DNA of 64,000 nucleotides from Octopus vulgaris (GCA_951406725.2 OX597817.1:74276001-74340000), one strand, 5' to 3'. Counted from the first letter of the stretch, positions 5,967 to 54,139 are shown. A program made the numbers and translations. The notes: generated from the sequence alone by a model not told the origin.

Positions 5967-6373
5967 GGAGTAAAGATTATTTGCCAACATAACATGGCAG
6001 TCCTGGTTTAGGATGAATGTTGCTGTAATTTAGCCCCAGGAGACATCGTCTGTGTCCTTATATTTTCGAACAAGGGAATCTAGCACCCCTCACTCAGCTC
6101 AAAACAATATCTGTGTATCGCGAATTTGGCAGCGCCACCTCTAGCCGAGCAATTATTCTGTGCTAATGAAGGGAAATAACCCGGAAATCGCAATACACAG
6201 ATATTGTTTTGAGCTGAGTGGCGGGGGTGGTGCTAGATTCCCTTGTTCGAAAATATAAGGACACAGATCGTGTCGTATAGCCAGCTGGAAACGATGTCTC
6301 CTGGGGCTAAATTACAGCAACATTCGTCCTAAACTAGGACTGCCATGTTATGTTGGCAAATGATTTTTATTCC
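5967..6373. repeat. ~400-bp fold-back element (arms ~160-190 bp) with a hammerhead-like motif at the apex
   Basis: Left arm ttgccaacataacatggcagtcc...ctgtgtatcgcga is the reverse complement of right arm tcgcaatacacag...ggactgccatgttatgttggcaaa. Confidence 0.92.
6157..6201 (+). ncRNA. Type I hammerhead ribozyme-like motif, core variant CUAAUGA
   Basis: tctgtg-CTAATGA-a-ggg-aaataa-ccc-g-GAAA-t-cgca-a-TA-cacaga. Stem I is 6 bp and stem II is 3 bp. The opposite arm shows the loop III palindrome CGCG. Confidence 0.65.
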
Positions 6374-6429
6374 TAAGTACTGTTGCTGAATATCTCTCGT
6401 TGTGAGATTTACAAATAGTAATTTTCTAA

Positions 6430-7108
6430 TTTGGTGTCGTGCTGTTGACAATTACCGGCAGAAAAAGAGATTAGCCTCAAACAACACTCATGCTGTCATG
6501 GTTGCTACATTAGGGGATGATAGTGGAGGCGCAATGGCCTAGTGGCTAGGGCAGCGGACTCGCGGTCGTAGGATCGCGGTTTCGATTCCCAGACCGGGCG
6601 TTGTGAGTGTTTTTATTGAGCGAAAACGCCTAAAGCTCCATGAGGCTCCGGCAGAGGATGGTGGTGATCCCTGCTGTACTCTTTCACCACAACTTTCTCT
6701 CACTCTTACTTCCTGTTTCTGTTGTGCCTGTATTTCAAAGGGCCGGCCTTGTCAGTCTCTGTGTCACGCTGAATATCCCCGAGAACTACGTTAAGGGTGC
6801 ACGTGTCTGTGGAGTGCTCAGCCACTTACACGTTAATTTCACGAGCAGGCTGTTCCGTTGATCGGATCAACCGGAACCCTCATCGTCGTCGTAACCGACG
6901 GAGTGCTTCCATTAGGGGATGATGCTCTAGTTTTATCAACAGTGTAAAAATGGGCAGCTAAATTTAGGAGGAGAAGAGAGAGTCTCGGAGATGATCCAGC
7001 TTCTGGACGTCCTGAAACTGCCTCCACTGAGGACAACACTGATCGTGTTCACTACATACTGATGGATGGCAGATGATTGACTACAAATCAAAATATCCAA
7101 TGCTATTC
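6430..7108 (+). pseudogene. Mariner-type transposase N-terminal (HTH) relic interrupted by a SINE
   Basis: Joining across the SINE gives ...HAVMVATLGDDALVLSTV*KWAAKFRRRRESLGDDPASGRPETASTEDNTDRVHYILMDGR*LTTNQ, matching the mariner DxxxSGRP motif. Confidence 0.8.
6522..6909 (+). mobile_element. tRNA-derived SINE, family A, full length with a 14-bp TSD
   Basis: TSD cattaggggatgat at 6508-6521 and 6910-6923; tRNA-like head. Confidence 0.95.
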
Positions 7109-7111
7109 GTA

Positions 7112-7142
7112 TTAGGTTGGTGCATAATTATTGCGGCTTTTT
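7112..7142 (+). mobile_element. Mariner-like terminal inverted repeat
   Basis: ta-ttaggttggtgcataattattgcggcttt resembles the Hsmar1/MADE1 TIR and follows a TA. Confidence 0.6.
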
Positions 7143-7213
7143 TTTTTTTTCAATAAATTTTAGTCAACAAAAAATTTAAACAAAACGCTAAGCAAAAATA
7201 GAAGTTGATGATG

Positions 7214-8005
7214 AAGGCAGCGAGCCGGCAGAAACGTTAGCATGCCAGGCGAAATGCTTGGCGGTATTTCGTCTGCCGTTATGTTCGGTATTTCGTCCGC
7301 CGAGGTCGACTTTGCCTTTCATCCTTTCGGGGTCGATAAATTAAGTACCAGTTACGCACTGGGGTCGATGTAATCGACTTAATCTCCTTGTCTGTCCTCT
7401 CTATGTTTAGCTCCTTGTAGGTAGTAAAGAAATAGGTATTTTGTCTGCCGTTATGTTCTGAGTTCAAATTCCGCTAAGGTCGACTTTGCCTTTCATCCTT
7501 TTGGGGGTCGATTAAATAAGTACCAGTTACGCACTGAGGTCGATATATTAGACTTAATCCGTTTGTTTATCCTTATTTGTCCTCTCTGTGTTTAGCCCCT
7601 TGTGGGTAGTAAAGAAATAGATATTTCGTCTGCTGCTACGTTCTGAGTTCATCTTCCGCCGAGGTCGACTTTGCCTTTCATCCTTTCGGAGTCGATTAAA
7701 TAAGTACCAGTTACACACTGGGATCGATGTAATCGACCTAATCCCTTTGTCTGTCCCTGTTTGTCCCCCTCTATGTTTAGTCCCATGTGGGCAATAAAGA
7801 AATCAGAAACGTTAGCACGCTGAGCGAAATGCTTAGCGGTATTTTGTCTGTCTATGGGTTCTCAGTTCAAATTCCGCCAAGGTCTATTTTGCCTTTCATC
7901 CTTTCGGGGTCGATAACTTAAGTACCAGTGGTGTACTGGGGTCGATCTAATCGACTGGCCCCCTCCCACAAAATTTCGGGCTTTGTACCTCGAGTAGAAA
8001 ATATT
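7214..8005 (+). mobile_element. SINE family C, tandem multimer of about 4 units
   Basis: Repeated unit gttctgagttcaaattccgccgaggtcgactttgcctttcatcctttcggggtcgataaattaagtaccag. Confidence 0.88.
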
Positions 8006-8153
8006 CTATGTCGTACTGAATTTCGCTAAGAACTATGTTAAGAGTACACGGGTCTGTGGAGTACTCAGCCACTTGCATGTTAATTTCACGAGCAGGCTGT
8101 TCCGTTGATCGGATCAACTGGCACCCTCTTCGTCATAACCGATGGAATGCTAG

Positions 8154-8187
<34 letters not shown>

Positions 8188-8191
<4 letters not shown>

Positions 8192-8346
8192 ATCGTAAAA
8201 ATATCTGGTCTGAAAAGAAGGCGTTTAAACCGGATGTATCCTAGGAACAAGAAACCTGATAGGAGCATCGTCTCTGCCAACAGCATCAATGGCGATATTG
8301 CTGAGGGTGTGGTAGTAAACTGAGCCCACATCATCATCTTTAACAT
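8188..8346 (-). CDS. Candidate first coding exon of an unidentified neighbouring gene (hydrophobic N-terminus)
   Basis: Unique, non-repetitive sequence encoding MLKMMMWAQFTTTPSAISPLMLLAETMLLSGFLFLGYIRFKRLLFRPDIFTIP, followed by gtgtgt (possible donor). No homologue recognised. Confidence 0.25.
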
Positions 8347-9249
8347 GTCTCACAGCTAGAACCTTTTACTAAATATTTTATCCAATCATTTATCTCCAGA
8401 ATGGCAGCTTCTACATGGAATCACATTCTCATCAGACATTAATTTACACAAGTTGAAAAAAGACATCATCTACATTCACATTAACAGTTTAGGAAAGCCT
8501 GCAGATGTTCTCTTGCTCGCACTTTATATCAATACAAATAAGAATTTCTAACAAAGGTACATAGCCAAAAATTTTATAGGAGGAAATAATGTCAACTATA
8601 TTGACCCACTCCTTATCTAGTGTTTTATTTCATTGCCCACAAAAAAAGAGAAATGTGAAGTGTGTTGACAATGCTAACTAACCATTTCATGACTTAAATT
8701 CTGATAGGTAAACTGTTTCATTAAATCTCTAGTGCCAGTTTAGCATACAGTAAACGTGGCCATTTACAATTTAGTATGCTATCTGTTGCCAATTCTAGAC
8801 CATAGCTCTAACCCTAACATAAACCATAACAACGCATAGTCTACATAGTTACAAGCAGATAGACACTCTACTGACCTTCTCACCTTTATCTCATAATTTT
8901 GTTGATCCAAACACCTGATTAATAATTAAAGAAAGTAGCTATTTTACTAAGACTGTTCAAATTGATTATGTGTATTTCATTGGGAACATGACTATAAAAG
9001 AATTTAGCATCAAATTTGATTTCAACTTACATTTTCCACAGCTATTCTAACAACAGTGTAACATTACTTCTGTAACCTCTCAGAGGAAACATGACTCCTC
9101 CTTCATTCCTCTCCACCCTTCATTTATGGTTTGAGAATAATTCTATAATTGTTGTAAACTGGAATGGAACTTACTCTCTTTCTGCTCACATCCATTCTCC
9201 ATTTAATGCTGCTTGGTTTGCATCTTTTAGAGAGATAGATTAGATATAA

Positions 9250-9644
9250 CTAGCAGTATCGCCCGGCGTTGCTCGTGTTTGTAAGGGAAATAACCATATA
9301 AGCATTTTTAGAGTTATAGCCAAAAATAGCAAAAAAATGCATTAAAACGGAAAAAAAATGATGGTAATATTTTTTTAAATCGTTGACTCATCGTAGACAT
9401 TTTTAGAGAGTTACTTCCCTTATATAATAGCCAAAAAATGCATTAAAATGGAAAAAAATGATGGTAAATTTTTTTTTAAATCGTAGACTCATCGTAGACG
9501 CGCGCTAATACCCAGAAGGGCTCGATATGAATCACGACTATAAGATACCCGCTTTTGGTTAAACTGCACCGCAAAATGTGGGAGTAGTTAGGAATCTAAA
9601 TCGTAGGAGACACACACACACAACCTCTCTTTTATATATAAAGA
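9250..9644 (-). mobile_element. Non-autonomous Helitron
   Basis: Minus strand starts TCTTTATATATAAAAG and ends in a GC-rich subterminal segment (cgagcaacgccgggcg) plus CTAG. It is inserted between A and T with no TSD and has an internal ~100-bp duplication. Confidence 0.85.
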
Positions 9645-10540
9645 TAAACTCAAAGAGCAACTAGAAAGTGAAAGTAGTATCTAACTTAGGATGTCTCATA
9701 GATAGTGGTGGCAATGGTGTTGGAGGTGGTAGATGTGGTTATCATGGCAGTGGTGGTGGTGGTGTAGTGGTGACAGTGGATGTGTATGATGGCAGCAATT
9801 ATAGTGTTGGTGTTTTTGTAGAGGTGGTGGTGGTGGCGGCGGCAGTGGATGATAATGATAATGATGATGATAGTAGTAGTAGCATTGATTATGTTAGGAT
9901 GTCTCATGGATGGTAGTGTTGAAGACATTGCAGAGTGTAGTGGCGGTGAAATTGGTGATTTTGAATATGATGCTGGTATTGGTCTTGGAGTTGTGGTTGC
10001 AGAAGATGGTTGTGGTGGTGGCATTGGAGGTTGTAGTAATGGTTGTAGTGGTGGTTGTGAAGATGATTCTGATATTGATAGTCTTTCCATTGAGGTGGTG
10101 GCAGAGTCAGAGTAAATAATAAGAGCCCAGTTAACACAAGATTCTTAAATTTCGGAGATCATAAGATAGAGAGCAAGAAGTTAAAAGTTCCAATACTGGC
10201 CCAATACCTACACCCCAGATTCTTCAACTATTTTATAAGAAAGGGGTTAATGGCAGGATAGGGATTCAGCCTTAAAATAAATTGTATAACAAAAAATACA
10301 TAAATAAATTACTGCTCCAACGATGTAATTTTAGTATGTGTGTATGTATGTATGTGTGTGTGTGTGTGTGTAAGCAATACAAACAATGGAAAATAATTTA
10401 AACACTCATTTTCTGATGTCTAAGGATGGATATTTATGCGTATGAATCTTTTTCTTTTTATATTCTTTCAAATATAATTCTAGGGAACTGAAAAAGCTGT
10501 GTACGATGCCAAGCGAATTTAGCTATTTACGATGAGCGGA

Positions 10541-10617
10541 TGTTTACGTTACAAACGAATCTGTAGGTCTGTTTACATGTTTACGTTAACTACGTCACAA
10601 AATAGCTGTTTACGTCA
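10541..10617. promoter_or_regulatory. Cluster of forkhead (TGTTTAC x4) and CRE-like (TACGTCA x2) motifs in CpG-retaining unique DNA; putative promoter or enhancer
   Basis: TGTTTAC at 10541, 10570, 10578 and 10607; TACGTCA at 10591 and 10611. Confidence 0.45.
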
Positions 10618-11093
10618 CAGTAACAATATTTTGAGAGGCAGTAAATAATATGAGGTCGAAAGAAAGAATACCATTGGTTAAAATTCGAATTATTAAACAA
10701 CGTTAAACTTAGAAATTACAATTCCGTTTTCATTTTGGTTTACAATTATGTTTTCTTTTGACACATTCTACCAGTATACGAAGTTTCAAATTGTTTAGTT
10801 AACTAGGAAAATCTGGCCTTCAAACTGAAAAGATCCCAAGTTTATACTAATGTAAGCATAAAAAGAAAGAGAACGAGTACGCGTGACGTCTTTGAAGGTG
10901 AAAGTTGGAGGGTGAAAAAAGATCGATAAAAGAAAGGGAAAAGGATAGTAGAAGGCAGTGCGAGAGAATCGTGGCACTCCGTCGGTTACGACGACGAGGG
11001 TTCCAGTTCAACCGATCAACATTTTGTATACAGAAATACAAAATGGCTGATGGTTACTAAGGAGAGACACAAATAAGTGAGAAGAAAACAAAG

Positions 11094-11137
11094 GACCACT
11101 GATGCGGTCACAGGAGTGTGACGAAAGAACTCTGGCC
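11094..11137 (+). ncRNA. Type I hammerhead-like motif (A9>C) in a pLTR-like fragment that ends at (TA)n
   Basis: gacca-CTGATGC-g-gtcac-aggagt-gtgac-GAAA-gaac-TC-tggcc. Confidence 0.65.
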
Positions 11138-11301
11138 GAAATAAGATTAAGATTAATGTAAAAAATAAATAACACTGAAGCAAATATATAGTGCGTGTGT
11201 TTTTATTGGCTAAACTGGCAAAATGACCATTCCGAAATATAACAATATCTGTTTCAACACACGACTTCACATAAAAAATCTTGCACAACAAATATTTAAA
11301 T

Positions 11302-11305
<4 letters not shown>

Positions 11306-11353
<48 letters not shown>

Positions 11354-11358
11354 CATAC

Positions 11359-11402
<44 letters not shown>

Positions 11403-11454
11403 ATACATATATACATACATACATATATATATACATATATATTTATATATATAC

Positions 11455-11540
<86 letters not shown>
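11306..11540. repeat. (TA)n microsatellite
   Basis: Directly visible. Confidence 0.98.
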
Positions 11541-11544
<4 letters not shown>

Positions 11545-12722: not shown

Positions 12723-12759
<37 letters not shown>

Positions 12760-12760
<1 letters not shown>

Positions 12761-13091
12761 AACTTTAGGTGAGTTAAGATATGTTTGTGACATATTTCAG
12801 CTTCTAAAAGGAAAAAATTATCTCCTTTAGTATAAGCTGTCCAGTGTTTCTCCCTGTTGTATTCTCAGACGCTGCCTTTCTAGATCTTTAGCCGTTATCG
12901 ATGGGAAATATAAATGGCTAAATAGCTAGAAACGCAGCGTCTGGGAATTCGACAGAGAGCAACTCTGGACAGATATAATGTTTTTACACCTTTTACCATG
13001 AGGGAGATGTTTTTCCTCCGCGATAACTACAGTGTATTTGCCTTAAGAAGTTGAACTATATCACAAAAATATTTTAACTAACAAAAAGTTC
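12760..13091. repeat. ~330-bp imperfect fold-back with a decayed hammerhead at the apex
   Basis: gaactttaggtgagttaagatatgtttgtga pairs with tcacaaaaatattttaactaacaaaaagttc; inner arms are ctgtccag...cagacgctgc and gcagcgtctg...ctggacag. Confidence 0.88.
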
Positions 13092-13142
13092 GCTTATATC
13101 AAAGACTGCTTTGCGCCGATACTGTTTCATATATATATGTGT

Positions 13143-13487: not shown

Positions 13488-14731
13488 ATTATCAACCGCA
13501 TATACTTTATGCATATGTGAATTATCTGGTAGGCTGCGATTTGGCGTGGTGGAGAATACTCTCTCTAAGCACCGGGTGTGAAAGCACCTGAAAGTCATGG
13601 ACAGGTGAGATAACTCGCCCCAGATCCCATCTAGTAGTGATGGACATCAATATTTTGCCATTTTGTGGCTTATCAACATCACATACTCGAACAGATCGGT
13701 GATAAATCATATCGTCAGTTCATGACATATGCATATAGTGTGAAAATTATGCGCTGGTATGCCTGGACAATGAATACGTAAGAATAAATTCAAATATGAA
13801 ATAGAAGTAGCGATAGTGTAATAAACATTGCCAACCACATATATTTAACGCATATTTTTCGTGTATATGCTAGTAAGCTGCGAATTGGCGTGATGGAGAA
13901 TACTCTCTCAGAGCGCCGAGTGTTAAAACACCTAGCAATGCACATAATTTAAATTACGTTTTTGTACACACAAAGAATGGCGTTTACTATTGGATTTAGT
14001 TTCAGACAACTTCTCCTAAGAGATTTTGTGCGTTAAACACATGCTCCAAATGAGTCTGCAAACTGCCATATACTGGTTTCGGCATAATAACGCCTCCTCA
14101 GTAACCAGCAGCGAAAAAAAAATGTAACATTGAAAAAGATATAACACCCAAAAATATGTCGTTTAGCAAGTGCCAATCCACGTTTGTGTGTACACGAGTG
14201 TTCAAAATGATGTACACGTTATTTTAATATCTGCTGATTCGAGTTCACATACCGAAATGCATACATATTATTGATGTCATAAGAATTCATAAACTTTCAA
14301 AAAAACATGAAATACTTCTATTTTTTTTGGGAACAGTGGATCTCAAAGCACACAAAGCTATAACAGCAAGTAAAAATTGTGTTGAAAACCATTTTGGAAA
14401 TAAAAAATCAAAGGTTACCCGTGGAACTCTAACTCAGATCTCTAGTAGATATGACAGGTATTCTAACATTGGACCAAAGCAATCTTTCAAATTTCTTTAC
14501 CCATTTTAGAAGCTTTGATCCTATGACAGAATGCCTGTCATGACTCCAGATGTGGGTTCAAGACTCACCAAAATTGAATAAGTAGTCAATCTTTAGAAAT
14601 TCAAGATAAATCAAGAATGAATGTAGGCCCTCACTATTTCAGTGTGTGTGTGCACGCGCGCTTGAGTGTATAAAATTCAGAAAATTAAACGATAAGGATA
14701 GATATGTGTATGTCGTTTAACGTCTGCCTTC

Positions 14732-28776: not shown

Positions 28777-29188
28777 CTGTTAATTAATTAAACAAGTAAA
28801 TTTTTCTACAGTTAAATTCATGTCATTGTTATTGTATGCTATGAATATAAAAGCTCTAAAGTGCAGAAACAACAACAACATAAGTAAACAGAGTGGTAAC
28901 AACACATATCAAGCAACAACAACAAAATACAATATATATGTAATAAAAATAAATAATTCAGTAATTATCTCTTTTCTTTTACTTATTTCAACATTAAGAA
29001 TTATGATACGTTTTATTTAGGTAATTTTGGTATTAATAATATGTATTATGATAATACAGAACATAAATATAATAATAGACTAAATAAGATGAAATTTAAT
29101 TCATTTAATGATAATAATACATTTAATAATAATATAAAAAATAAATATAATATAATAAAATATAATAAAATAAATATAATAACAAAAT

Positions 29189-30737
29189 TTGGTTAATTAT
29201 TCCTTATGGAGCTCAAGTTAAAACAAACATTATTAAAGAGATTTTAACTATAATTGAAGTATTCATTATAGATAATAAAAAATATTATAACATTCTTTAC
29301 TAGTAATAATTTTGGAGTTGGTTATTCTACTACTAATAATTTAGGTAACATTATTTCTTCTTTTAATAGATATAAGCTGAATAAGTTTTACAAAAACAAA
29401 TCAAATAATTACTCCAATAATAATAATAATATAATTAATCGTATGTGTAGAGATAAAACTAGATGTAAATTTAATAATAAATGCAATTTCGATGATGTAG
29501 TATATAAATGTGTAGTGACTTTGATTGATGATAATAATAGGAATGGTTATAATTTAAATGCAATTTACATAGGGTTGACTTCTAATAAAATTAAATTACG
29601 GGTAGCTCAACACATGAATTCTTTTAAGAATAGAAATTTAATTAATTCTACTGGCCTTAGTAAATATATATGGGAACTAAAATCTAAAAATATTAAGTAC
29701 TATTTAAATTGGGAGATAGTTTGTAAGGCAAAATCATATCGAATAGGTAATAATTTTTGTTTATTATGCACTAACAAATTCAAGGAGATATTATTAACTA
29801 ATAATAAAAATTTGATTAATTCCCTAAACGAACGAAAAATTAAATATAGACATAAATTAAATTACTTATATATGTTTAGCTAATTTGTATATATATATAT
29901 ATAAACCCTGTTTTTATCTTACTAATTGTAGTTATAATTTGTAGTAGTAAAATGTGTATAAATTAGTACGAGATTATATAGTCAATATTACATAATTAGA
30001 ATAAGTTGAAAATTAGATGTTTATAAAATAAATAAATTAATTAATGAAAATAGATTTAAGTATAGAATTTTAGCTTAATTTATGTTTATTATATTATGTA
30101 TTTTACATATTTAGTACTTAAATTATTTATACTTTACAATTTTTCCAGTTAATAGTATATTAAAGTTAATTTTTTTCTTGTTCTTACAGCTAAAATACAT
30201 TTGTAATTTTAATAGCTTAAATACATATTTCAATCTGCTTCTTCTATAAATTCTATTTACGCCATATTTTCACGCGATATATTTCTTATGAATGCTAAGT
30301 TTGACGTTTTACGTTTAAATTTTTAGTTAACAAAAATCCTTCGACAAGATGTTATATTTTTATTTTAAGTAATATTGTTAAATGCTTTTCGATTATTTAT
30401 AGTTAATACATGTATTTTTTTTTATTTATTTGATAATTAGTATAAGTTAAGATAAGTACATTTATTCTATTATTTTTTATTATCTTAGACCTAATGAGTG
30501 ACTATATTTTTAAATAAAATTAATTTTAGTTTGATCTAATTTTAAATCGAATTGATTTTTTTTATTATTATTATCTATTTGAAAATATAGCCATGAAACG
30601 TGCGTAGTCTTTTTACTACTATTTACTATTTATTGTACTTTATTGATTTTTAAAATAAGGTTTTTTATAGTATATGTTTTCTATATGGTGTGAATAACAT
30701 ATTTCTTTATTGAATTGTTTAATAGATGTTTGTCTCT

Positions 30738-30741
<4 letters not shown>
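29189..30741 (+). mobile_element. 5'-truncated, extremely AT-rich Penelope-like element (linker, GIY-YIG endonuclease, 3' pLTR with hammerhead)
   Basis: Linker WLIIPYGAQVKTNI.../...GVGYSTTNNLGNII with one frameshift. ORF 29443-29883 has CRDKTRC...C...VVYKC...YIGLT...R...H..SF...STGLSKYIWELK...CLLC. HHR at 30487; ends at (TA)n. Confidence 0.88.
30487..30610 (+). ncRNA. Type I hammerhead motif with a long stem II in the PLE 3' end (core CUAAUGA)
   Basis: agac-CTAATGA-[gtgactatatttttaaata...tatttgaaaatatagccat; 18 of 19 positions pair]-GAAA-c-gtgc-g-TA-gtct. Confidence 0.75.
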
Positions 30742-30786
<45 letters not shown>

Positions 30787-31390: not shown

Positions 31391-31530
31391 CTAAATAGTA
31401 GAAAAGAGAGGGACTTATTATCTATTATATAAAGACATCAGTTCTAAAACAACTGCAAACTATAGCTTATATATATGTATGTATTTCATATCTTATCTAG
31501 AATAACTATTGCTTAAACATTCTCTCACAC

Positions 31531-31580
31531 CATATCTGATGAAGGGATATATAAAATATCCCAGAAACAGCTGTAAGACC
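31531..31580 (+). ncRNA. Type I hammerhead motif with intact core and degenerate stem I
   Basis: CTGATGA-a-gggatat-ataaa-atatccc-a-GAAA-c-agct-g-TA. Stem II is 7 bp and loop III is the palindrome AGCT. Confidence 0.72.
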
Positions 31581-32203
31581 TTCTATTTATAAATGTTTTT
31601 AAATCTTTCACAGCCTTGGGTTTTTATTTCATTCTGTTAATTTATATATATATATATATATATTGTGTGTGCGTGTGTGTGTGTATTTATATATATATAT
31701 ATATACCGAGCCCATGGATGCTGGTGCCACGTAAAAAGCACCCATGCCAGTGCCACATAAAAGCACCCATGCTGATGCTGCATAAATGCACTCAGTACAC
31801 TCTGTAATGTGGTTGGCATTAGGAAGGGCATCAAGCTGTAGAATCCATGCCAAAACAGACATGGAGCCCAGGCAGCTCTCCAGCTGGTCTCCTTCTATCA
31901 AACCATTCAACCCATGCCATCATGGAAAATGGATGTTAAATGATGATGATGATGATGATGGTTAGTCCACATTACTCTGTAAGGAGCAGAGGGTTGGTTT
32001 CCTGGTTTCTCTGGTGTATATATTCCTCCCAGGACAGGATACCCGTCTGTTGCAGGATTACTCGTTTTTATCAGTTGAGTGTACTGGAGCAGCATGGAAT
32101 GAAGTGTTGTGCTCAAGAACACAATGCATTGCCCAGTCCAGGAACTGAAACCACGATCTTTTAATCATGAGTCCAACAACCCAACCACTACTCCATACAA
32201 CAC

Positions 32204-32260
<57 letters not shown>

Positions 32261-32452
32261 TATATATATAGACACAACATAGGTGCAGGTGTGGTATAGG
32301 CAAAGGTGTGGCTGTGTGGTTGAGAAGCATATTTCCCAACCATATGATCTCAGGTTCAGTTTCACAACATAGCACCTTAGGCTAGTGCCCCACCCCACTC
32401 CAAATAGAAAAGAAAGGAAGAAATTAATATAGAAGAACAGTTGAAAGCTTAC

Positions 32453-32591
32453 TTTTCGTAGAGTAAATGAAAATACAGCATTACAGCCTAGACAGTTGTT
32501 AACTTCATTATTGTCCATCCACTTATTATTTGCTTCTAATCTCCGATGGTAAGCAAGTTTATCAGTCTGCTTCCACAGATGATCTTTCTCT
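32453..32591 (-). CDS. FYCO1: FYCO1 exon (start of FYVE domain)
   Basis: ag|EKDHLWKQTDKLAYHRRLEANNKWMDNNEVNNCLGCNAVFSFTLRK|gtaagc; 139 nt. Confidence 0.95.
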
Positions 32592-34139
32592 CTGTAAGAT
32601 ACAAAATGAAGATAACTTCATTCAAACATTGTAAAAATGAAAAAAAAAACATCTTTATATGTATACTTCCCAAATAATAATAGTTACCACTGTTCTGTTT
32701 ATGCCCAGTGCTCCTTAATCTTTTATTGATAGTATATATATATAATAAAAAAATTTGCCTTCTTGAGTCATACCAACTCATAAAGGTTGGTTTCCTGGTT
32801 TCCATGACATATATATATATTCCCCACCTGGACGAGACGCTGGTCTGTTGCAGGATTACTCATTTTTTTCAGTGGAGTGGACTGGAGCAACATGAAATAA
32901 AGTGTTTAGCTCAAGAACACAAGATGCCCAGTCCAGGAAATGAAACCACAATCTTACAATCATGAGACTGACTGTATATTATGAACTTTGATTACTCGTA
33001 ACATCCATAAATTTTGTGACTTGGAAGATGGTAGTCATAGTATATGTGTGCTTGTGCTATTCTTGTCTTTTATATAGTTTAGACTAGTGGTACTCAAACA
33101 TTACTTGGCAAAGATGTATCTTGGTGCACCATGGATTTTTAACAAAATTGAAGCTTTACAAAAGTCAAACTAATGCTTGAGCATCTTGATGAAAAAAAAA
33201 TAAACATTAAAAAAATTACTATTATTTATAATTTTATTGTACACAAATTGAACCAAATTCGATGACTGGCACCTGTGCCAGTGGAGTACTAACAGCTCCA
33301 TCTAATTGGGATTACTGCCAGAGCGGCTATCTGGCTTTCATGCCGGTGACACATAAAAAGCACCATTTGAGCGTGATCATTACCAGCATCTCCTTACTGG
33401 CACTTGTGCTAGTGGCACGTGAAAAAACATTCAAGCGAGGTCGTTGCCAGTGCCACTGGAATGGCTCCTGTGCAGGTGGCACGTAAAAAACACCATCTGA
33501 GTGTGGCTGTTGCCAGTACTGCCTGACTGGCCCTCATGCCAGTGGCACATAAAAGCACTCACTACACTCTCGAAGTGGTTGGCGTTAGGAAGGGCATCCA
33601 GCTGTAGAAACTCTGCCAGATCAGATTGGAGCCTAGCGCAGCCATCTGGTCGCCAGTCCTCAGTCAAATTGTCCAACCCATACTAGCATGGAAAGTGGAC
33701 GTTAAATGATAATGATGATGAGTAGGGAGTCAAACAGACACAAAGACACACGCATACACATATTTATGACAGACTTTTTGTCAGTTTCCATCTACCAAAT
33801 CCACTCACAAGGCTTTGATTTAAATGAAGCTATAGTAGAAGACACTTGCCCAAGGTGTCATGCAGTGAGACTGAACCTGGAATCATGTAGTTGGAAACCA
33901 AACTTCTTACCACACAGTCTCTTCACAAACAACAAAACAAAAAAAACTATCAATTTAATTCCTGCAAAACACATCTTTAGAATCATGGCTCCCTAAATCT
34001 AACATAGACCTACTTCTGCAATTAAATATAGCCTAGAATGAAAAACAATTTATTTATGACCAAAAAGATTTATAAATTCTTTTTTTTTTCTCAAAAAATG
34101 TATTTCAAGTTGAAATATACTGGTCAACAATTTTGTTAA

Positions 34140-38025: not shown

Positions 38026-38172
38026 TATTTATTATTCTTATACAAGAATGTTGTTGACAGTGACTTTGAAGTTTCAGCCAGCTAAGCTATCATCAGACTA
38101 TGCGTCAGCTGGCCGAAATTTCAAAGTCACTGTCAACAATATCCATGTATAAGAATATAAGAATAATAAATT
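38026..38172. repeat. ~150-bp fold-back with a hammerhead at the apex
   Basis: attcttataca...gttgacagtgactttgaagtttcagccagct pairs with agctggccgaaatttcaaagtcactgtcaac...tgtataagaat. Confidence 0.9.
38057..38101 (-). ncRNA. Type I hammerhead ribozyme motif with intact core and GUC site, on the FYCO1 sense strand
   Basis: Minus strand: atagt-CTGATGA-t-agct-tagct-ggct-GAAA-ctt-ca-aa-GTC-actgt. Confidence 0.75.
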
Positions 38173-39959
38173 TGTACTCTACAAGAGTATAGAGTAACCC
38201 TTCAGATAAATATAAAATATTTTTTATTATAACTGAACATAAAAACAAACAGTAATACACACACATACATACATACATCTTATACATCTATATAATTTAC
38301 ATCTTAAGAATTTAGAAACCTTAAGAGAACATGAAATAATTCATTTTTAAAGGTTCAACCTGAAGCAGATAAAGTTATAAATAAGAGTATGTGCACACTG
38401 GGTGAGCAGCCTTCAACTTTTTCTGTTCAAAGTGTTTTTTATTTACACACTACTATTTATAGCTTTACCTACTTCAAGTTTAACCATTAAAAAAACAAAT
38501 TGTGTGTGTGTGTATGTGTATGTGTGCACATGTATGCCAGTCTGTTTCAGGGTTACCCATGCACAGCTGAGTGTACTGGAGCAATGTGAAATGTGCTCAA
38601 GGGCACATTAATTCTCTACCTTGGTTTCTGAAACACTTTCCAAGTTCAAGTCCTGACACAGTTAAATTTTGCATTTTATTCAATCAGGTAGAAGCCAATA
38701 CACTATAATACTGGTATTGATGTATTAGCACAATGTAAGGTGGCAAGTAGACAGAACCATTAGTACACCAGGTGAAATGCTTAGCAGCATTTCATCAGGC
38801 TTCATATTCTGCCAAGATTAACTTAAACCTTTCATCCTTTTGAGATTGATAAAATAAGTAACAGCTGAGTACTGGGGTCGTTCCTCCCCCAAAATTTCTG
38901 GCCCTATGCCAAAATTTGAAATCAAAATATTAGCACTATGCTGGTATTAATATACCAGCACTATAATGAAATTAATTGCATTGATTAACTGTCGTATATA
39001 AAATACCTAATGTGCCCATTGTAAATGATATCAATATCCTCTTACAGATGTCAATGAGGTAAGTGATCCCAAAATGAAGTTAGCATGCTTGTTAAAATGA
39101 TCTTTCAATTTACTTCATTTATTAATTGTATTAACCACATCTTTAGAAATGGAATGAAAATTTGTTTACATTTACATTAATATTATGTACAATCATTTTC
39201 ATATGTGAGCAGCTAAATGAATAAGAATTGTTATTATATCAGTCATTTGTGTTAATCAAAGTCCTTTCATTACCATTCTTGACCATTTCAATGATATGCC
39301 CTCTCTTCACCAGATCAGCTTCAAAAGAACTTTGGCAAACACAACTGATTGACTGATTAACCGAATGATCAAGCAAATAGTTGATTAGTTACTTGGTTAA
39401 ATAGCTAACCAATTGATGAATAATAAAGAAGTGAAACTGAACCAGTGTATGTGTTTATTATCGGTGTAATGATCCTCCCAAAATACAACAAAATCTGTCT
39501 TAACACACAAATTCACATCAAGAATCTAACAGATCAAATATAAAAATGTTATAAGTTTAAAAATAAAGATTTCTAACTTGAAATCAGTCTGCAATTATGT
39601 ATGTATTAAGGAATAACACATCTAATTATTATCAGAGATTAAAAAGAATCAAAACACAGAGTAGATGTAAATGTTAAACATTTTCCTTCTTTTTCCAAAG
39701 TTTCTAAAGCTGCTTCACTCACATTGAAGAGGATGGTTAAATTAGCAATCAAAGTAATTTTTAAAAAAACATACAAGACTGTGCTATTAACACTAGAAAG
39801 AAACAAGCAGATTAAATGTTAGTTCAGAAAAATTCTTCTGTAAGAAAGAGTAGTGATGCTCAATAACTAACACTTAGTGGTGCAAGCAAGCAAGGTCACA
39901 AAACACAAAAGAACAGAATGCTAAAAAAAAAGCAAAATGAACACATTGATAAAACTTGC

Positions 39960-40410: not shown

Positions 40411-41659
40411 TTTCAAGCTTTTCTGTCAAAGACCAAAGGTTCAAAATGTAAAAGACTTTTCCACTCTTCCCAAGCATCAAACTAATACTAATGCTTGTTG
40501 TTCCCTCCCATCTTTGTCTTGTTTTCTATAAATCTGAACTATATAAACACACACACACACACACACAATATAATATCAGTCATTTGATTCAGAAGGGTAT
40601 ATGATACCACTTGCTAAATTCAGAGCCAATGTTCAAAAAACCACCATAAACTCATGATAAAGATACACATGAGCAATGCAATAAACATATGAGAAATAGG
40701 ATTACCTTTGCTTTGAATACAGTAAGTAATGTATATTTCAATATCAATTGATTTCATACTTTGCATGACAAACATACATTGCAATCTTCAGTTGAAAATA
40801 ACATTTTAACATCTATTTCTAAAATATTCATTCCATTAGCTCATGTGCATTCCTTACTTTAAACATCCTGATCCATTTAAAAGAAAACTATCATGAGCAA
40901 GAAAAAATTTTAGCAAGTGGTATTATATCCCCTACTGAATCTAAATTTACTTTATATTGTGCCTGTAATGGTGTGAACTTGCTAGCCACCTTATTATTAC
41001 CTCATTAATACAACTAATAATGGTAATAATACTTCTTTATTTAAATTTATATATATGTACATATATATTCACAAATATCATACACTTATCATGAATAGAG
41101 GTGTGGGTTCAAGTCCCATGCATACAGAAAAACCAGTTTTTCCATCAAGGGCATATATGCCCCAATATTAGACTATTTTCTTTAGTCAATTTATGGGGAT
41201 CACTTATAAGCTTTAAGCTTATAAAATATTATTATTATTTACAGAATATATATAGTTATCTGTAGCTTAATACAATAAAGTGTCCCTGATGATCTATTGC
41301 AGTTGAGCATCTAAATGCACTTGGAACACCTAGTGTAGAACTCAAACAAATATAATGTGAAACACATGTGAGAACTAAAGTATAATGTGAAACACATGTG
41401 AGAACTAAAGTATAAACTTGTGCTTATCCTTATTTCCCATATATATATATATATATACATAATCATATTGAAGGGAAATGGAAATTAATAGAAATTTTCA
41501 CTTCTAGTGGCCTAGCGTGTAAAAATTTAGTCAAAAGACTATATATTACTCAAAAAATACTGTGTGCATTTAAACATATAAGGAATCCACTCGTGGGATT
41601 CACTCGTGGGATTCACCACACGAGAAAGAACAGCTAGGTTCTATAACCACAAAATTAGG

Positions 41660-42240
41660 GATAAAATTCGAGTATATGTGTGGAGACAGCCAAAGGAAGC
41701 ATTTGACCCAGACTGCCTTCTTCCAACTGTTAAACATGGAGGAGGATCTGTGATGATCTGGGGGGCTGTATCCTGGAAATCCGCCAGCCCAATGGTTTCC
41801 TTTCATGGCAGAATTAATAGTCAAGACTATTTAAGTATTTTATCTGATCAAATTCATCCTATGCTTGCAGAATTGTTTCCAGAGGGAAACGCAATCTTTC
41901 AGGATGCTAATGCACCAATTCACACAGCTAAAGTTGTTACTGAATGGCACGAGTAACATTCTAGTGAAGTTGAACATCTTATCTGGCCACCACAGTCCCC
42001 AGAACTCAATATTATTGAACATTTATGGTGCATTTTAGAAAAACAAGTAAGGAGTCGATATCCTGGAGACTGTTTTAGCTGAAGAATCGACAAAAATTCC
42101 TTTGGAAACAATTCAAACTTCGTACAAGTCCAAACCTCATAGAATTCAAGCTGTAATTACTGCCAAAGGTGGTCCTACCTCATATTAAAATAAATTTGCT
42201 TGAAATTTTAAGTTGTTTCCATTATTTTGTCCAACCCCTG
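41660..42240 (+). mobile_element. Tc1-family transposon relic (DDE domain fragment plus right TIR)
   Basis: PTVKHGGGSVMIWGA...FQDANAPIHTA...*...WPPQSPELNIIEHLW; ends ...ttttgtccaacccctg|TA. Confidence 0.92.
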
Positions 42241-43005
42241 TATATATATATATATCATCATCATCATTTTTATTTGTGGAACTCTCAAGTAGGGAAAGCT
42301 ATATAATTAATAGGGTTAAATCTCTTCACAGAGATATACACATCAGTGGGAGACAAGCATATAATCTCTCCAATGGGTCAAGTCATAAAAATGCCAAATA
42401 CTTTTATGCCTTCTTGGGCTTTGTCAATGACATATATATGGCCATCACATTGTGTATATACATAGCCAAACATTTTGATTTAATGTATATACATTCATGT
42501 ACACAATTGAAACAGCATTAAATCCAAGTGGCCATCTGTATATATACACAATGTGATAACTGACTACACATCACTGACAAGGTCGAAGAAAACATAAAAG
42601 TTTCCATGACTCACTGTTGAGATGTTTGCTTTGCTCTGATATATATTATGTTTTAAGCACACCATGTGGTGTATATGTGTATGGTACACAGATGGAGATT
42701 GTGTGTGTGGGGTGTTTTTTGCGGGGGGGGGGGACATTTTGAAGCAATATATTACAGGTTGTGGCATATAACTGGTCAGAATGTGACTGTTGGTTTCATA
42801 CCAAATATTGCCACAAGGCAATTTTGATAACTCCTCAGATATGCTGGTTAGAAGTGTACATCCTCTTTTATGCTGGGTGTATCCCTGCTCTAGTACTTAC
42901 AATGAATGTGTGTGTTTTTCTGACTTATGGAGAACTAACTGATGATACATATATATAGACACACACACACATATAAATAAATAAATATATATATATATAT
43001 ATATA

Positions 43006-43461
43006 CCATGAGATCTCATAATGGCTTTTGGTGCAAAATGCATTCTTGTTTATATCATTAGCAGCAATATAAACAAGAATGCATTTTGTACCAAAAGCCA
43101 GTATGAGAGTTTCTCTCTTGATAACTATCGCAGAATAGTCTGTTCTAACAGTACATTCAATGTTTAAGTGGAGATAAATATTACCTCTCAGTATTTAAAC
43201 TGCTTCTGTCACTAATGAATAAATAAATATATATATATATATATACCATGAGATTCATAATGGCTTTTGGTGCAAAATGCATTCTTGTTTATATCATTAG
43301 CAGCAATATAAACAAGAATGCATTTTGTACCAAAAGCCAGTATGAGAGTTTCTCTCTTGATAACTATCGCAGAATAGTCTGTTCTAACAGTACATTCAAT
43401 GTTTAAGTGGAGATAAATATTACCTCTCAGTATTTAAACTGCTTCTGTCACTAATGAATAA

Positions 43462-48795: not shown

Positions 48796-48837
<42 letters not shown>

Positions 48838-49006
48838 CATATATATATATATACGACAGGCTTCTTTCAGTCTCCATCTATGAAATCCACTCATAAGGCT
48901 TTGGTTGGCCTGAGGCTATAGTAGAAGACACTTTCCCAAGGTGCCAAGCTGAGGGACTGAACCTTGAACCATCTGGTTGGGAAGAAAGCATCTTACCACA
49001 CAGCCA
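48490..49006 (-). mobile_element. SINE family B with a family D tail fragment inserted in its TA tract
   Basis: Reverse-complement similarity to family B. Confidence 0.8.
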
Positions 49007-49874: not shown

Positions 49875-50015
49875 CATTTCATGTAAACATGCCACCTGAT
49901 TCTTCATTGTGATTTCCAATTGTTCTTTTTCTTCTTGTAAGTGTCTGAGAATATCTTCTTTCTCTTTCACTGTTTTATTGCTGTCTTGTAGTTCCCGTTC
50001 TTTGTTACTCATAGT
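49875..50015 (-). CDS. FYCO1: FYCO1 exon (coiled coil)
   Basis: cag|TMSNKERELQDSNKTVKEKEDILRHLQEEKEQLEITMKNQVACLHEM|gtaaat. An alternative in-frame donor follows 49896. Confidence 0.85.
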
Positions 50016-50104
50016 CTGTGACATAAAGAGAGATATATTATGTCCATGAAATGTTAATTTTGCTAAATAAGTAACCTTATGTATAGGCTTGAAACATTTT
50101 TGCA

Positions 50105-50446
50105 AATCGACCCCCAGGACTTATTCTTTGTAAGCCTAGTACTTATTCTATCGGTCTCTTTTGCCGAACCGCTAAGTTATGGGGACGTAAACACACCAGC
50201 ATCAGTTGTCAAGTGATGTTGGTGGGGACAAACACAGACACACAAACATATACACACATACATATATATATATACATATATACGACGGGCTTCTTTCAGT
50301 TTCCGTCTTCCAAATCCACTCACAAGGCTTTGGTCAGTCCGAAGCTATAGTAGAAGACACTTGCCCAAGGTGTCACGCAGTGGGACCGAACCTGGAACCA
50401 TGTGGTTGGTAAGCAAGCTACTTACCACACAGCCACTCTTGTGCCT
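50105..50446 (-). mobile_element. SINE family B
   Basis: Reverse-complement similarity to family B. Confidence 0.88.
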
Positions 50447-51394
50447 ATGTTACATATATGTAACATATTTTTTAACATGTTTTGTTCTTAATACAAATAA
50501 ATTAATGCATTAATTTGTGAATATACAATTGTATTGAATAATACAAAACACATATAAATGTAAACAATGTACACATAAGTTCTTGCATACTGAACTTAAT
50601 GCTAAATAAAGAAGGTTGCGGAACGGCTGTAACCCATTGGAAGTCACATGATGAAATAACTATGTATTCATTTCTCATACTTCCTAACTTTATGCAATCA
50701 CTTCACCATCTGACATATGACACACCACACACCTTAACAGGCAATGTAGATTTGATGGAGGTAATGTGTTAATGTACAGCACAAACATTTGATCACTATG
50801 AAAAAAAAAAAAAATGTCTGTGCAGGTTATTCAGAAATTGCAGAGCCCCAATCTGTCATCTACAACAGGATAGTTTACCCCACCCTCACCACCACACATA
50901 CCTATCAACTCACACACACACACACACACACAACATACACACACACATATACAATAGGTAATAGTTGTTTCCATCAACCAAATCCACTAACTAAGTTTTG
51001 GTTGGCTCTGGACTATATAGAAGACACATGCTCAAGGTGCCATGCAGTGGTATTGAACCTTGGACCACATAGTTGGGAAGCAAGCTTCTTAACTATATAA
51101 CCACACCTGCACTTATTATATAAATGGAATAAAAGGCACCCTTTCCAATGATATGTAAAAGACACTCAGCATACTCTATGGAATGGTTGACATTAGGAAG
51201 GGCATCCAGCTGTAGAAACCAAGCCAAAATAGACCAATGGAGTCTGGTGTAGCTCTGCAGCTTACCAGTTCCAGCATGGAAAACAGATGCTAAATGATAA
51301 TGATGATTATGGTGATGATGATGATTATGAACAACTACATACATGCATAACATAAGAAATAAGAAATTGCTTGGAGCCATAAAACTCATAATAC

Positions 51395-52411
51395 CTCCAC
51401 AGACTTTTGATGCTGAAGTTGCTGGGCACTCAACTGGAAATGGGCTGCAGACAATTCTTCTTTCACTAAATTCAGCTCAGAAGAAATTGATTCTTGGCTT
51501 TCTGCAAATTCTTTTCTCAAATTTTCAATAGTCTCTTCTTTCTCTTGTAAACTGTCCTTGAAATCTTGCTCCGCTAACTGCAAGAGTTTCTTCTCTTCAA
51601 TCAAGTGGTCTTTGTCAACTTGTAGAGAATCTATCACAGACTGCAATGTTATTCGCATATCATTTGATTTTGTATTTTCTGACATAACTTGATCAAGTTC
51701 TTGCTGCAAGTCAATCTTTTCTGTTTCAGATTTTACTACTTTCACATGTAAATCAGCTGCTTGTTTCTTTATATTTTCCATTTCTTTTGTAAGGTTTTGG
51801 TTTTCCTCTAAAACTTCATTTAGCTTGGTTTGGAATTTTTCTTTAGAACTCAGCAGTTGTTGTTCTGTTTCTTTATGCTTGGCATTTATTACAGATATCT
51901 GCATCTCATACTGTTCCTTATATTCATCGAGTTCAGATTGAAGAGCAAAGTGTTTAGCCATCAATTCCTTATGATTATTTTCCAAAGAATGCAGTTTTTC
52001 ACTCAGCTCTTCATTTTGAAGAATCATATTTTCTCTTTCACAGCCAAAATTGCTAATCTCATCATTGGAAGCTTTATTCCTTTCTTCTAATGTATTATAT
52101 TCTTTATCTTTTATTTCTAAATCACATTCTAACTTTTGAATACATTCTTTCAAATAAGAATTCTCAGATGACATTTTTTCCATTTTCTCACTGAAATCAG
52201 ATTCTTGTTTTTGCAATTCTGCATTTTGTGATCTAGAACCTTCCAATTCTGACTTTAACAATGATATTTGTGCTAGAATTTCCTTATTAGGTTCTTGTTG
52301 ATGAAATCTTCCTTCAGAATTTAGATTTTTAGCCTCTTTCACAAACTCAAACAGTTTTTCTACAGTATCATTCAAGTCGTCATCTAGGGATTCAAAGTTA
52401 GAAATATAATC
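51395..52411 (-). CDS. FYCO1: FYCO1 large coiled-coil exon
   Basis: cag|DYISNFESLDD...QHQKSVE|gtatta; 1017 nt, E/K/Q/L-rich heptads. Confidence 0.93.
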
Positions 52412-52623
52412 CTGCAATATGAACAGAAAAAGAGACAAATTAATTACCATATTTGAACTAATTTTTATCATATTCTCCATTCCTTTCATCATTCATATTA
52501 ACATTATCTCTATTAATTTATTTAATATATGATTTATTTAATATTTAATCATTTGTTATTCTACAGACTTTTCACACCCATTTCTTAAAAACTCTAATAA
52601 ATACATTAGTGTGTGTGTGTGTG

Positions 52624-52697
52624 CAAAGGGCAAAAGCTCACTCGATCTCGATTTTCAGTACAAATACAGACCATGAAAGCGTGGCCATCGATCCTTT
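52624..52697 (+). pseudogene. 28S rRNA-derived fragment
   Basis: aagggcaaaagctcactcgatctcgattttcagtacaaatacagaccatgaaagcgtggccatcgatcctt matches the conserved eukaryotic LSU sequence AAGGGCAAAAGCTCGCTTGATCTTGATTTTCAGTACGAATACAGACCGTGAAAGC. Confidence 0.88.
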
Positions 52698-53843
52698 CCG
52701 AACAGCAGTGAGCTAACTACGGAAGTGGTGGCTTTTCATCGTTGCAAATGCGCACGACACCCCAACACCAAACCGGCTGGCAGACGACACGGCACGCCGG
52801 ACAACCGAAGCAGCAAAGAAATGCTGCGATGACCAAAGGAGCAGTTAGATATGTGTGGTAGAAGATAAATTTCTACCTGGATAGGATGCCAGGCTACCAC
52901 AGATCCCATTCTCAGAGGATTTGGTATTTATTACTGATAGATAAACTATAATAATATAGCTTCAAATTTGGAGGATTTATGTAGTTGAACAGATAGACCT
53001 CAGTATTCAGCAGACATTTATTTTACTGACACTGGAAGGATGAAAGGCAAAGTCAATCTCAGTGAGATTTGAACTCAAAACATAAAAGAATATAATGAAA
53101 TACTACATGACAATTTGTCCACTACTCTACTGATTCCAGTAGTGGCGTCCACACTCAAATCATCTTGCAAATTTAAATATTCATTGCATTCACTGCAGAG
53201 TATTGCATTTGCAAAATCTCTCACTCTCTCTTTTAATATTTTCATTTTAAGTTTTAATTCAGTATTTGGAAAACTGACAGTTTATTCTATTAATGTATAC
53301 GTAATGTAAATACATTATTTATTGAATGAAAAGTTTTTAAAATACCCATATAATTTTTGTAAAACAAATTTTAAAGTGATTTTGTTGTAATGACTGGAAC
53401 ACTATAAGCTTTAGAATAATAACTATCTGGAGTAATTTGGGCCATTTTGCCTCTTTAACTTAAAAACCATGGGAGGAGTCTTTTTGGTAACACAAAAAAA
53501 ATAATAAAACTGTAGATATTTTCAAAGGAAAAGGTGAACAATTCAAGGGAAGTTTCGCTGTTGTTTCTAGTACAACCCAAACCACCCTCCTTTTTCACTC
53601 TCACATGTATTGATGTTTTTTCAATATTTTTCTCCCATTAAACACATTTTATAGAATGATAATGCCGAAGTAACACACGCATGGTCCATTGGTAGAAGAA
53701 AAACAACAAAATAAATTGTAATCTAAATTTTTACCTCCACCTGAATCAAGTGAAGCCATGTGTGTGTCTAAGAAAAAAATCTAACTGAAAAGTATGCTAT
53801 TAAAAGGAATTATTGTTTACATAACTCTTTTTTTTAAATCAAC

Positions 53844-54139
53844 AACAATTGCAGTGTGGAAGATGTGTGTAAGCCATTCAAGAACACACAAGAAGTTAGT
53901 TTCACTCTAACATTTAAATTTCATTTGTGTGAAAATATTTTTGTTGCTTTGAAACCGTGACCTGTTCACTGACAAAACTTCGTGCTGCATCACTTCTGTG
54001 AAGTTTTGTCAGCGAACAGGTCGCGGTTTCAAAGCAACAAAAATATTTTGACACAAATGAAATTTAAATGTTGAAGTGAAACTAGCTGTTTTTGTGTGTT
54101 CTTGAATGGCTTACAAACATCTTCCATGCTGCAATTGTT
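53844..54139. repeat. ~300-bp fold-back (arms ~140 bp) with a variant hammerhead-like motif in each arm
   Basis: aacaattgcagtgtggaagatg...gacaaaacttc pairs with gaagttttgtc...catcttccatgctgcaattgtt. Confidence 0.92.

Follow-up and report, generated by a model that had tools for sequence, protein, structure and literature searches.

Four fold-back repeats lie within a 64,000-nucleotide stretch of the Octopus vulgaris genome (GCA_951406725.2 OX597817.1:74276001-74340000; hereafter the window), and each of them contains a sequence that resembles a hammerhead ribozyme. The locus raises the question of whether such hairpins are mobile units in their own right, as an earlier note on this DNA proposed, or whether they are the traces of another element. 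Our analysis favors the second answer. We read the fold-backs as head-to-head insertions of the ends of Penelope-like elements (PLEs), which combine one long and one short end and arise afresh, through two-ended target-primed reverse transcription, whenever an element lands; we put the probability of this reading at roughly three in four. The hairpins are likely one-off scars rather than self-copying units.

The fold-backs were found where the earlier note had placed them, at 5967-6373, 12837-12972 (the core), 38033-38157 and 53837-54146. The elements exceed the lengths claimed for them; each has a tail on one side only, and they cover 5967-6429, 12760-13124, 38027-38256 and approximately 53845-54198. 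All seven hammerhead-like motifs reported in the window were also located, together with an eighth family that had been overlooked. The families, numbered 1 to 8, were searched for in an assembly of 2.8 Gb in 227 contigs. The predicted high copy number was borne out by a first look, which returned 3404, 1489, 2171 and 4429 candidates for families 1 to 4 and 1834 and 2671 for families 5 and 6; these totals are not copy numbers, and 40 candidates were scored per family. Family 8 has 511 candidates. The clustering of junctions at the ribozyme in the first search was biased by the use of fold-back queries; therefore the counts below come from 30 family-1 loci found with the outer end alone (the tail-anchored set) and from 166 loci chosen by a pattern within the unit (the internal-pattern set).

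Paired ends and variable junctions

The families have two fixed 3' ends downstream of the ribozyme, one short and one long, which are 35-85 nt apart; the stretch between them is the tail. The short and long ends are at consensus positions 298/353, ~319/354, 74/158, 147/205 and 288/340 in families 1 to 5, respectively. An adjacent inverted arm, arranged head to head, is present in 69 of the 166 internal-pattern loci (22/28, 6/30, 13/41 and 28/67 of the pattern-picked loci in families 1 to 4). A long end was paired with a short end in 47 of these fold-backs, like was paired with like in four, and the remaining 18 have one unclassifiable end. The long/short combination in 47 of 51 classifiable cases gives P=1.2e-10 against even odds. 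Solo copies, which have a single arm, terminate at either site; in family 4 there are 19 long and 18 short ones.

Target duplications of 9-17 bp flank 22 of 26 family-1 loci (six being one nested insertion), compared with 7 of 206 mismatched pairs. The corresponding values in family 4 are 11 of 19 loci and 14 of 118 mismatched pairs. The same test gave 9/20 against 43/106 in families 3 and 5, where the (TA)n setting makes it uninformative. PLE-type insertion signatures, namely an inverted 5'-truncated copy, a one-sided tail and target duplications, were all found, which supports the link to PLEs drawn in the earlier note.

The junctions between the arms vary from copy to copy, and their overlaps are mostly 0-5 nt. 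Seven of the 30 tail-anchored family-1 loci belong to the nested subfamily of the window; the other 23 consist of 18 fold-backs, three solos and two tandems, and their inner ends are scattered between positions 1 and 271. Neither arm attains the ribozyme in 6 of 13 tail-anchored single-unit fold-backs of this family. The ribozyme is not an obligatory center of the fold, and the proposal that a hairpin built around it is the mobile unit is not supported by these data. Copies with a fixed junction exist (six loci with the family-1 junction of the window, about a dozen with the family-4 junction). These copies also have common flanks and the original target duplication, which indicates that they travel within larger repeats.

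The two arms of an insertion differ in extent. In 23 of 30 family-1 fold-backs the short-ended arm reaches deeper than its long-ended partner, a result that snap-back of a complementary DNA (cDNA) begun at the long site cannot give, and it may contain up to three tandem units while the partner arm is a fragment. Non-consensus bases are common to two arms more often in the same insertion than in different ones: 7.2 vs 3.4% in family 1, 12.6 vs 6.8% in family 3, 37.8 vs 19.2% in family 4 and 50 vs 3.3% in family 5. This sharing, which is 2 to 15 times higher within an insertion, suggests one source RNA or later conversion. In family 1, 7 of 28 arms end 10-20 nt inside the tail of the preceding unit, and a circular template is one possible reason. 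Arm ends were not seen to accumulate at the ribozyme cleavage site; cleaved linear monomers were rejected as the main templates on this ground.

These data are explained if two cDNAs are primed separately and then joined by microhomology. In the mechanism we propose, a dimer of the PLE enzyme, which joins a reverse transcriptase (RT) with a GIY-YIG endonuclease, would nick both target strands, ~10-14 bp apart. Uncleaved RNA from one source would be primed by one nick at its long site and by the other at its short site; the two cDNAs would extend toward the 5' end of the RNA and then join via 0-5 nt of microhomology. In families 3 and 4 a TATA/initiator promoter would place the RNA start 3-25 nt upstream of the ribozyme core, and both cDNAs would run off the capped end of this RNA just before the ribozyme, having passed the cleavage site. 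Such a run-off would explain why the fold is centered on the ribozyme and why the TATA box is left behind. A PLE from Anolis nicks and extends both strands, has two RT start sites that bound the tail, and is predicted to form a dimer; insertion also proceeds with a mutated PLE ribozyme (PMC11167929). Insertion itself likely does not require the ribozyme. The combination of an inverted truncated copy with a one-sided tail has been published for PLEs (PMC8557442).

Likely start sites and hammerhead cores

The start of family 3 was read by eye in 41 distinct copies that hold the 5' edge of the ribozyme (42 of 44 matches were fetched and one duplicate was dropped). Within ~3 nt of one point 29 of these copies end, and 12 continue upstream. 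A script had scored 17 of the 41 as continuing; five of them were reassigned by eye to the stopped class, in which one copy (L414) is ambiguous. A TATA box is present at -31 to -34 in 9 of the 12 continuing copies. Family 4 has a TATA box at -30 from a +1 A, which lies 23 nt before the core. The base before this A, scored in the first 100 of 261 matches with a pattern that excluded C two places upstream of the A, was the templated C in 35 copies, G in 45, A in 10 and T in 10. Hence G accounts for 45 of 65 non-templated bases; at internal truncations, which served as the control, it was found in 42 of 185 cases (P=4e-11). In most of the 35 G copies that were inspected, the bases further upstream belong to unrelated flank or to the opposite arm. 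A cap can be copied by reverse transcriptases as an additional G, and the extra G at the family-4 start suggests a copied cap. Of the first 100 family-4 5' matches listed, about half are on one contig (C16), in two clusters.

A likely transcription start lies just upstream of the ribozyme in families 3 and 4, and because their copies end there, the folds are centered on the ribozyme. A pLTR (the terminal repeat of a PLE) with a TATA box plus an initiator-like motif has been reported (PMC3846280). The literature search covered main texts and found no description of a cap-derived G in PLEs. An earlier idea, that the hard 5' limit of families 3 and 4 marks a short unit similar to a short interspersed nuclear element (SINE), was dropped after copies were found that extend further upstream. 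An initiator or cap signal was also considered for families 1 and 2 and rejected; most copies pass through, and the 7 of 29 family-1 arms that stop near one candidate start are too few.

The hammerhead signal depends on the level at which it is examined. A strict descriptor with stems I and II of >=3 bp gave 4 matches in the window, whereas 40 block shuffles had a mean of 1.1 matches and a maximum of 3. Tighter descriptors gave 1 match against shuffle means of 0.15-0.45, and under one criterion there were 4 against a mean of 1.1 and a maximum of 4. The signal in single copies, which are decayed, is weak and hardly above chance. At the family level it is clear. Each of six family consensuses has one fit to a minimal type I hammerhead, compared with 0-1 of 500 base shuffles per consensus, with a descriptor that was loosened once the families had been seen. 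As the earlier note anticipated, these six consensuses restore the core, three stems, the NUH site and a short palindromic stem III. The hammerheads of families 7 and 8 were judged from alignments, outside the six-consensus test. An Rfam scan of the window (E<=1) returned 69 matches, none of them to a hammerhead family; this says little, since minimal motifs escape Rfam. A candidate motif at 14101 (minus strand) was dropped as probably due to chance; it is low-copy sequence with four genome candidates and belongs to no family.

The families differ in their cores. The 3-8 pair is C3-G8 in 43 of 48 arms of family 1 and 17 of 27 arms of family 3, U3-A8 in 17 of 27 arms of family 2, and G3-C8 in 50 of 63 arms of family 4. 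No natural G3-C8 hammerhead core was found in the literature searched; the pair appears there only as an engineered partial rescue (PMC11167929). Such variants, or families from octopus, may be listed in the supplements of PMC4209133, PMC3088659 and PMC8557442. Families 5 and 6 depart from the canonical core: position 9 is C in all 24 family-5 arms, and C4 occurs in 12 of 24 family-6 arms, seven of which 24 have the canonical core. Family 5, with C9 in every arm, may have spread with a weak ribozyme. It is a young family (L106-L125, 98-100% identity), and upstream it continues into AC-rich sequence for at least 260 nt. Stem II of family 8 shows a compensatory change between subfamilies.

The families in the window and the link of some to Penelope open frames

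The family-1 insertion (5967..6429, plus strand) consists of an antisense short-ended arm (5967-6126) and a sense long-ended arm (6101-6429), between 14-bp target duplications at 5954-5967 and 6428-6441. Its hammerhead (6157..6201, plus strand) has a palindromic loop III and carries the change G5A in this copy; the family core is canonical. A block of about 6 kb around it (~4957-10844), which contains SINE arrays and the fold-back, recurs with 95-96% identity at three loci (L585-L587) and in part at two more (L588, L589), all on other contigs. The family-2 insertion (12760..13124) lies within a (TA)n/(TG)n run and has a short-ended arm at 12760-12910 and a long-ended arm at 12913-13124; its hammerhead (12861..12909, minus strand) is of the U3-A8 variant.

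The family-3 insertion (38027..38256; short arm 38027-38097, long arm 38090-38256) is a head-to-head stub of what appears to be a decayed PLE of the Hydra clade. Its arms join at the likely transcription start, and the arm opposite to the hammerhead (38057..38101, minus strand, canonical core) supplies the 5' strand of stem I. The family-4 insertion (53845..54198), with a 12-bp target duplication at 53830-53841 and 54199-54210, is a passenger within a larger repeat. Its hammerhead (54007..54053, plus strand) is decayed, and a second copy is present on the minus strand at 53928-53974. The older repeat that carries this fold-back extends over about 1.8 kb (53156-54979), with 81-88% identity between copies. 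The earlier statement that one strand has the whole motif and the other only its 3' part applies to the window copies of families 1 to 3 and fails for family 4, which has the motif on both arms.

The remaining families are represented by copies of other shapes. Family 5 is a 5'-truncated solo copy of a young family (11032..11301, plus strand; motif 11093-11137) with a long end followed by (TA)n, and family 6 is a solo stub flanked by (TA)n runs (31482..31638, plus strand), whose hammerhead at 31532-31579 (plus strand) has a palindromic loop III. Family 7 (28990..30745, plus strand) is a 5'-truncated Hydra-clade PLE that terminates at (TA)n. Family 8 is a minus-strand fold-back (40564..41010, the right end being approximate) with a tandem unit of roughly 430 nt, a canonical core and a palindromic loop III; its junction lies ~110 nt upstream of the hammerhead (40736-40797, minus strand).

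Families 1, 2 and 8 are tandem units without an open reading frame (ORF) and with one hammerhead per unit. The head-to-tail unit is 353 nt in family 1 and ~335 nt in family 2, and the longest stop-free frames in the doubled units have 73 and 67 codons. The first two are retrozyme-like and probably passengers. Variants are common to the units of a family-1 array in 20% of cases, compared with 3% between arrays.

Family 3 is different. It extends >1 kb upstream into remnants of a Hydra-clade endonuclease, and three loci (L367, L370, L380) are collinear from Hydra-type endonuclease motifs to the ribozyme and tail (best E 5e-10). It is best read from these remnants as the stub of a decayed, once autonomous Hydra-clade element, and a retrozyme's source without coding capacity does not apply to it. 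Family 7 was correctly described as a Penelope element with a hammerhead (30487-30610, plus strand, with a long, AT-rich stem II) at its 3' end; its endonuclease remnant (29272-29883) is 67% identical to an 851-aa open frame elsewhere. Among 150 listed matches, seven have open frames of 828-862 aa. The three intact frames that were checked have the motifs DKT, YRDD, CxCX5C, CxxC and CxH and a C-terminal endonuclease (EN). A Pfam scan of the PLE proteins gave no RT or GIY-YIG match, and a PDB sequence search returned nothing; part of the members among their atlas neighbors carry GIY-YIG, RVT_1 and HTH_animal. Autonomous copies with intact frames form kilobase inverted arms, and two of them (L209 and L211) show both end types. 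Seven young Hydra-clade PLEs (L201-L207), with frames of 828-862 aa, 97-98% identity and an asparagine-rich insert, are candidates for an active family.

A link to an ORF with RT plus GIY-YIG is present in families 3 and 7, and families 1, 2, 4, 5 and 6 showed no consistent link to the Hydra-type queries used. In a blastn comparison of families 1 to 6 with the termini of 18 young Hydra loci, the only matches were one family-5 fragment and one 30-nt match to family 2. Upstream of family 4 there is a (TACA)n tract up to a TA run, and tandem copies exist; same-strand Hydra-like matches occur in 3 of 189 loci, on inconsistent sides. Family 4 is probably non-autonomous. The earlier description of the elements as non-autonomous members of several families stands for families 1 and 2, which are ORF-less, probably for family 4, and fails for family 3. 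Likewise, arms that match the pLTRs of full-length PLEs were found for family 3 only, in decayed copies only.

The window is rich in microsatellites, and its PLE protein has named relatives from a cephalopod. The elements, which are probably intronic, are surrounded by coiled-coil exons on the minus strand and one weak FYVE match. The exons of this host gene (32165-32617, 51386-52492 and 55179-55961, minus strand; coiled-coil and FYVE-like) were read as FYCO1-like; their Pfam matches were under the cut-off. Two opposite copies of an abundant SINE-like repeat (2713-3096 and 6518-6912) form a 259-nt inverted pair. The frame at 41582-41956 has no Pfam match; by eye it resembles a fragment of a Tc1/mariner transposase. 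An old 200-bp palindrome (42400-42601) and a ~240-bp tandem with a 95-bp hairpin after (TA)n (43005-43420) showed no hammerhead and no match in the fetched loci.

Alternative explanations and meaning

Four other explanations were weighed against two-ended priming. That the hairpin itself is transcribed and reinserted whole, as a ribozyme-centered non-autonomous retroelement, was the view of the earlier note and now seems very improbable. It would account for the fixed-junction copies of families 1 and 4 and for the fold-back as the commonest form of family 1 (18 of 23 independent tail-anchored loci), but the former share flanks and the original duplication and ride on the ~6-kb block or the ~1.8-kb host; moreover, independent insertions differ in their junctions, the ribozyme is missing in 6 of 13, and the TATA box is omitted in families 3 and 4. 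The chance that the fold-backs are miniature inverted-repeat transposable elements (MITEs) of DNA transposons with accidental hammerhead-like words is close to nil. Their size of 150-460 bp, long inverted repeats and high copy number, as well as single-copy motif counts near chance, give them the appearance of MITEs. However, the earlier note was right to call this appearance deceptive: the ends are asymmetric and the junctions variable, so that symmetric terminal inverted repeats and a fixed structure are not found, solos and tandems are common, family 3 runs into a PLE endonuclease, and each consensus fits a hammerhead. Barring a transposase with these termini, the MITE explanation is refuted for families 1 to 4. 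Self-priming of one strand, with an endonuclease that trims one end and so creates the tail, is unlikely, albeit with more in its favor. Self-priming on an antisense template has been proposed for head-to-head repeats of rotifer PLEs (PMC3846280), and the tail has been ascribed to endonuclease resolution (PMC8557442); trimming of one end would yield the strict long/short pairing, and correlated inner ends and variants common to the arms would also be expected. Against this, in 23 of 30 family-1 cases the longer arm is the short-ended one, with up to three tandem units facing a fragment, solos terminate at either site, both sites serve as RT starts in vitro (PMC11167929), and the extra G marks the 5' end of the sense strand, which fits a sense template.

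The last alternative concerns families 1 and 2, which could be classic non-LTR (long terminal repeat) retrozymes, with dimeric hammerheads that cut tandem transcripts and circles that serve PLE enzymes as templates. This is possible but doubtful; it is compatible with the insertion step proposed here, yet it gives the ribozyme a real role. The head-to-tail arrangement of units (353 and ~335 nt) that lack an ORF and have a single hammerhead agrees with it, as do the variants shared within an array (20% vs 3%), the palindromic loop III with its dimer gain of 3-12.5 kcal/mol, the compensatory change in stem II of family 8, and the 7 of 28 family-1 arms that stop 10-20 nt inside the preceding tail, as if they had reached the other priming site on a circle. 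On the other side, arm ends do not pile up at the cleavage site, the motifs are of the minimal PLE type with low activity in vitro (PMC4209133), and tandem precursors account for the same data.

Several observations weigh against two-ended priming or against parts of it. Families 1, 2 and 4 were not tied to any mobilizing ORF by the Hydra-type queries. Gene conversion within palindromes could equally yield the shared arm variants. In unbiased sets, the inner end of one arm correlates with that of its partner (rho 0.58 in family 1, n=13; 0.79 in family 3; 0.89 in family 4); in families 3 and 4 the reason is the shared stop, which fails to explain the family-1 correlation and there favors coupling or a loop. 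Besides the four fold-backs with like ends, one family-5 copy has two long ends. The G before the family-4 start may derive from the opposite arm in a few of the 35 inspected copies, and this start coincides with an apparent splice acceptor (branch-point-like motif, pyrimidine tract and AG; L292-L321), so that splicing could contribute. Families 1 and 2 have no hard stop near the ribozyme, most copies running through; the extra G was not seen in families 1, 2 and 3, and the family-3 template has a nearby G of its own. The 5' end of the transcript, its cap and the cleavage are all predicted from DNA sequence. Finally, the Penelope promoter of Drosophila virilis is internal and TATA-less (PMC2377424), which means that stubs are not necessarily silent. 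The acceptor-like stretch of family 4 resembles the promoter-intron overlap described for Penelope.

Most of these features have counterparts in known systems. Insertions of endonuclease-containing (EN+) PLEs share with the octopus copies the head-to-head arms, a tail at one end, partial tandems, target duplications of ~10 bp, a hammerhead in the terminal repeat, (TA)n targets and a pLTR motif with TATA and an initiator-like element (PMC8557442, PMC3846280). The octopus insertions differ in that they are only 150-460 bp as a whole and have tails of 35-85 nt versus the published 30-40; furthermore, their tail is not merely optional but opposes a short end in 47 of 51 cases, and family 4 has an extra G at a fixed start. 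The Anolis element Poseidon resembles them in vitro, with two tail-bounding RT starts downstream of the hammerhead, both strands cut and extended, and uncleaved RNA (PMC11167929). No difference in start site between the strands was seen there, whereas the octopus genomic record implies different sites at the two ends of an insertion. Family 7, the upstream remnants of family 3 and the intact 840-aa frames match the Hydra clade of PLEs with C-terminal EN (PMC8557442) in DKT, CxCX5C, CxxC, CxH, the hammerhead and (TA)n targets; the assignment is by motifs, and the intact octopus frames have KWK in place of RWK.

Families 1, 2 and 8 are like the metazoan non-LTR retrozymes, which repeat in tandem as units of 150-450 bp without an ORF, each with a type I hammerhead, and have larger target-site duplications and a proposed PLE origin (PMC7229834; bioRxiv 10.64898/2026.07.22.740005). 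The published examples are arrays and circles, and the main text of PMC7229834 does not use the word 'inverted'; here inverted forms dominate family 1, and the motifs are minimal and known from genomic DNA. Minimal type I hammerheads of PLEs have a short palindromic stem III, an extra base between positions 9 and 10.1 and a U3-A8 variant, and opposite-strand pairs of motifs occur 100-700 bp apart, as in the octopus (PMC4209133); G3-C8 in family 4, C9 in family 5 and the frequent C4 of family 6 set the octopus motifs apart. The architecture, the minimal hammerheads, the opposite-strand pairs and U3-A8 are thus already published (PMC4209133, PMC3088659). Within the literature searched, neither fold-back retrozymes in cephalopods nor a strict long/short pairing was found.

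Together, these results are mostly known biology with no new class of element, and they add clues to the mechanism. The origin of the inverted ends and the tail of PLEs has been called unresolved (PMC8557442) and the later steps unvalidated (PMC11167929), and the value of the octopus families is that they form a large natural data set on both features. Three of their features are directly testable: long ends almost always pair with short ones, copies end at a likely capped start that bears an extra G, and no stops are seen at the ribozyme cut. As to annotation, the MITE-like repeats of the octopus genome are PLE products, and family 4 is a natural test of the hammerhead 3-8 pair. Tentatively, and at odds that fall short of even, we suggest an asymmetric PLE dimer that would pair one target strand with the long start site and the other strand with the short one, the template being a single RNA, capped and uncut (or a circle in the tandem families). 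The hammerhead at the first bases of the transcript would then be a landmark or a late-acting switch, and the template would not be defined by its cutting. Family 4 would represent a natural high-copy hammerhead in which G3-C8 is a compensatory swap that maintains activity. If this is true, thousands of scars map the promoters of PLEs and the missing second-strand step at single-base resolution.

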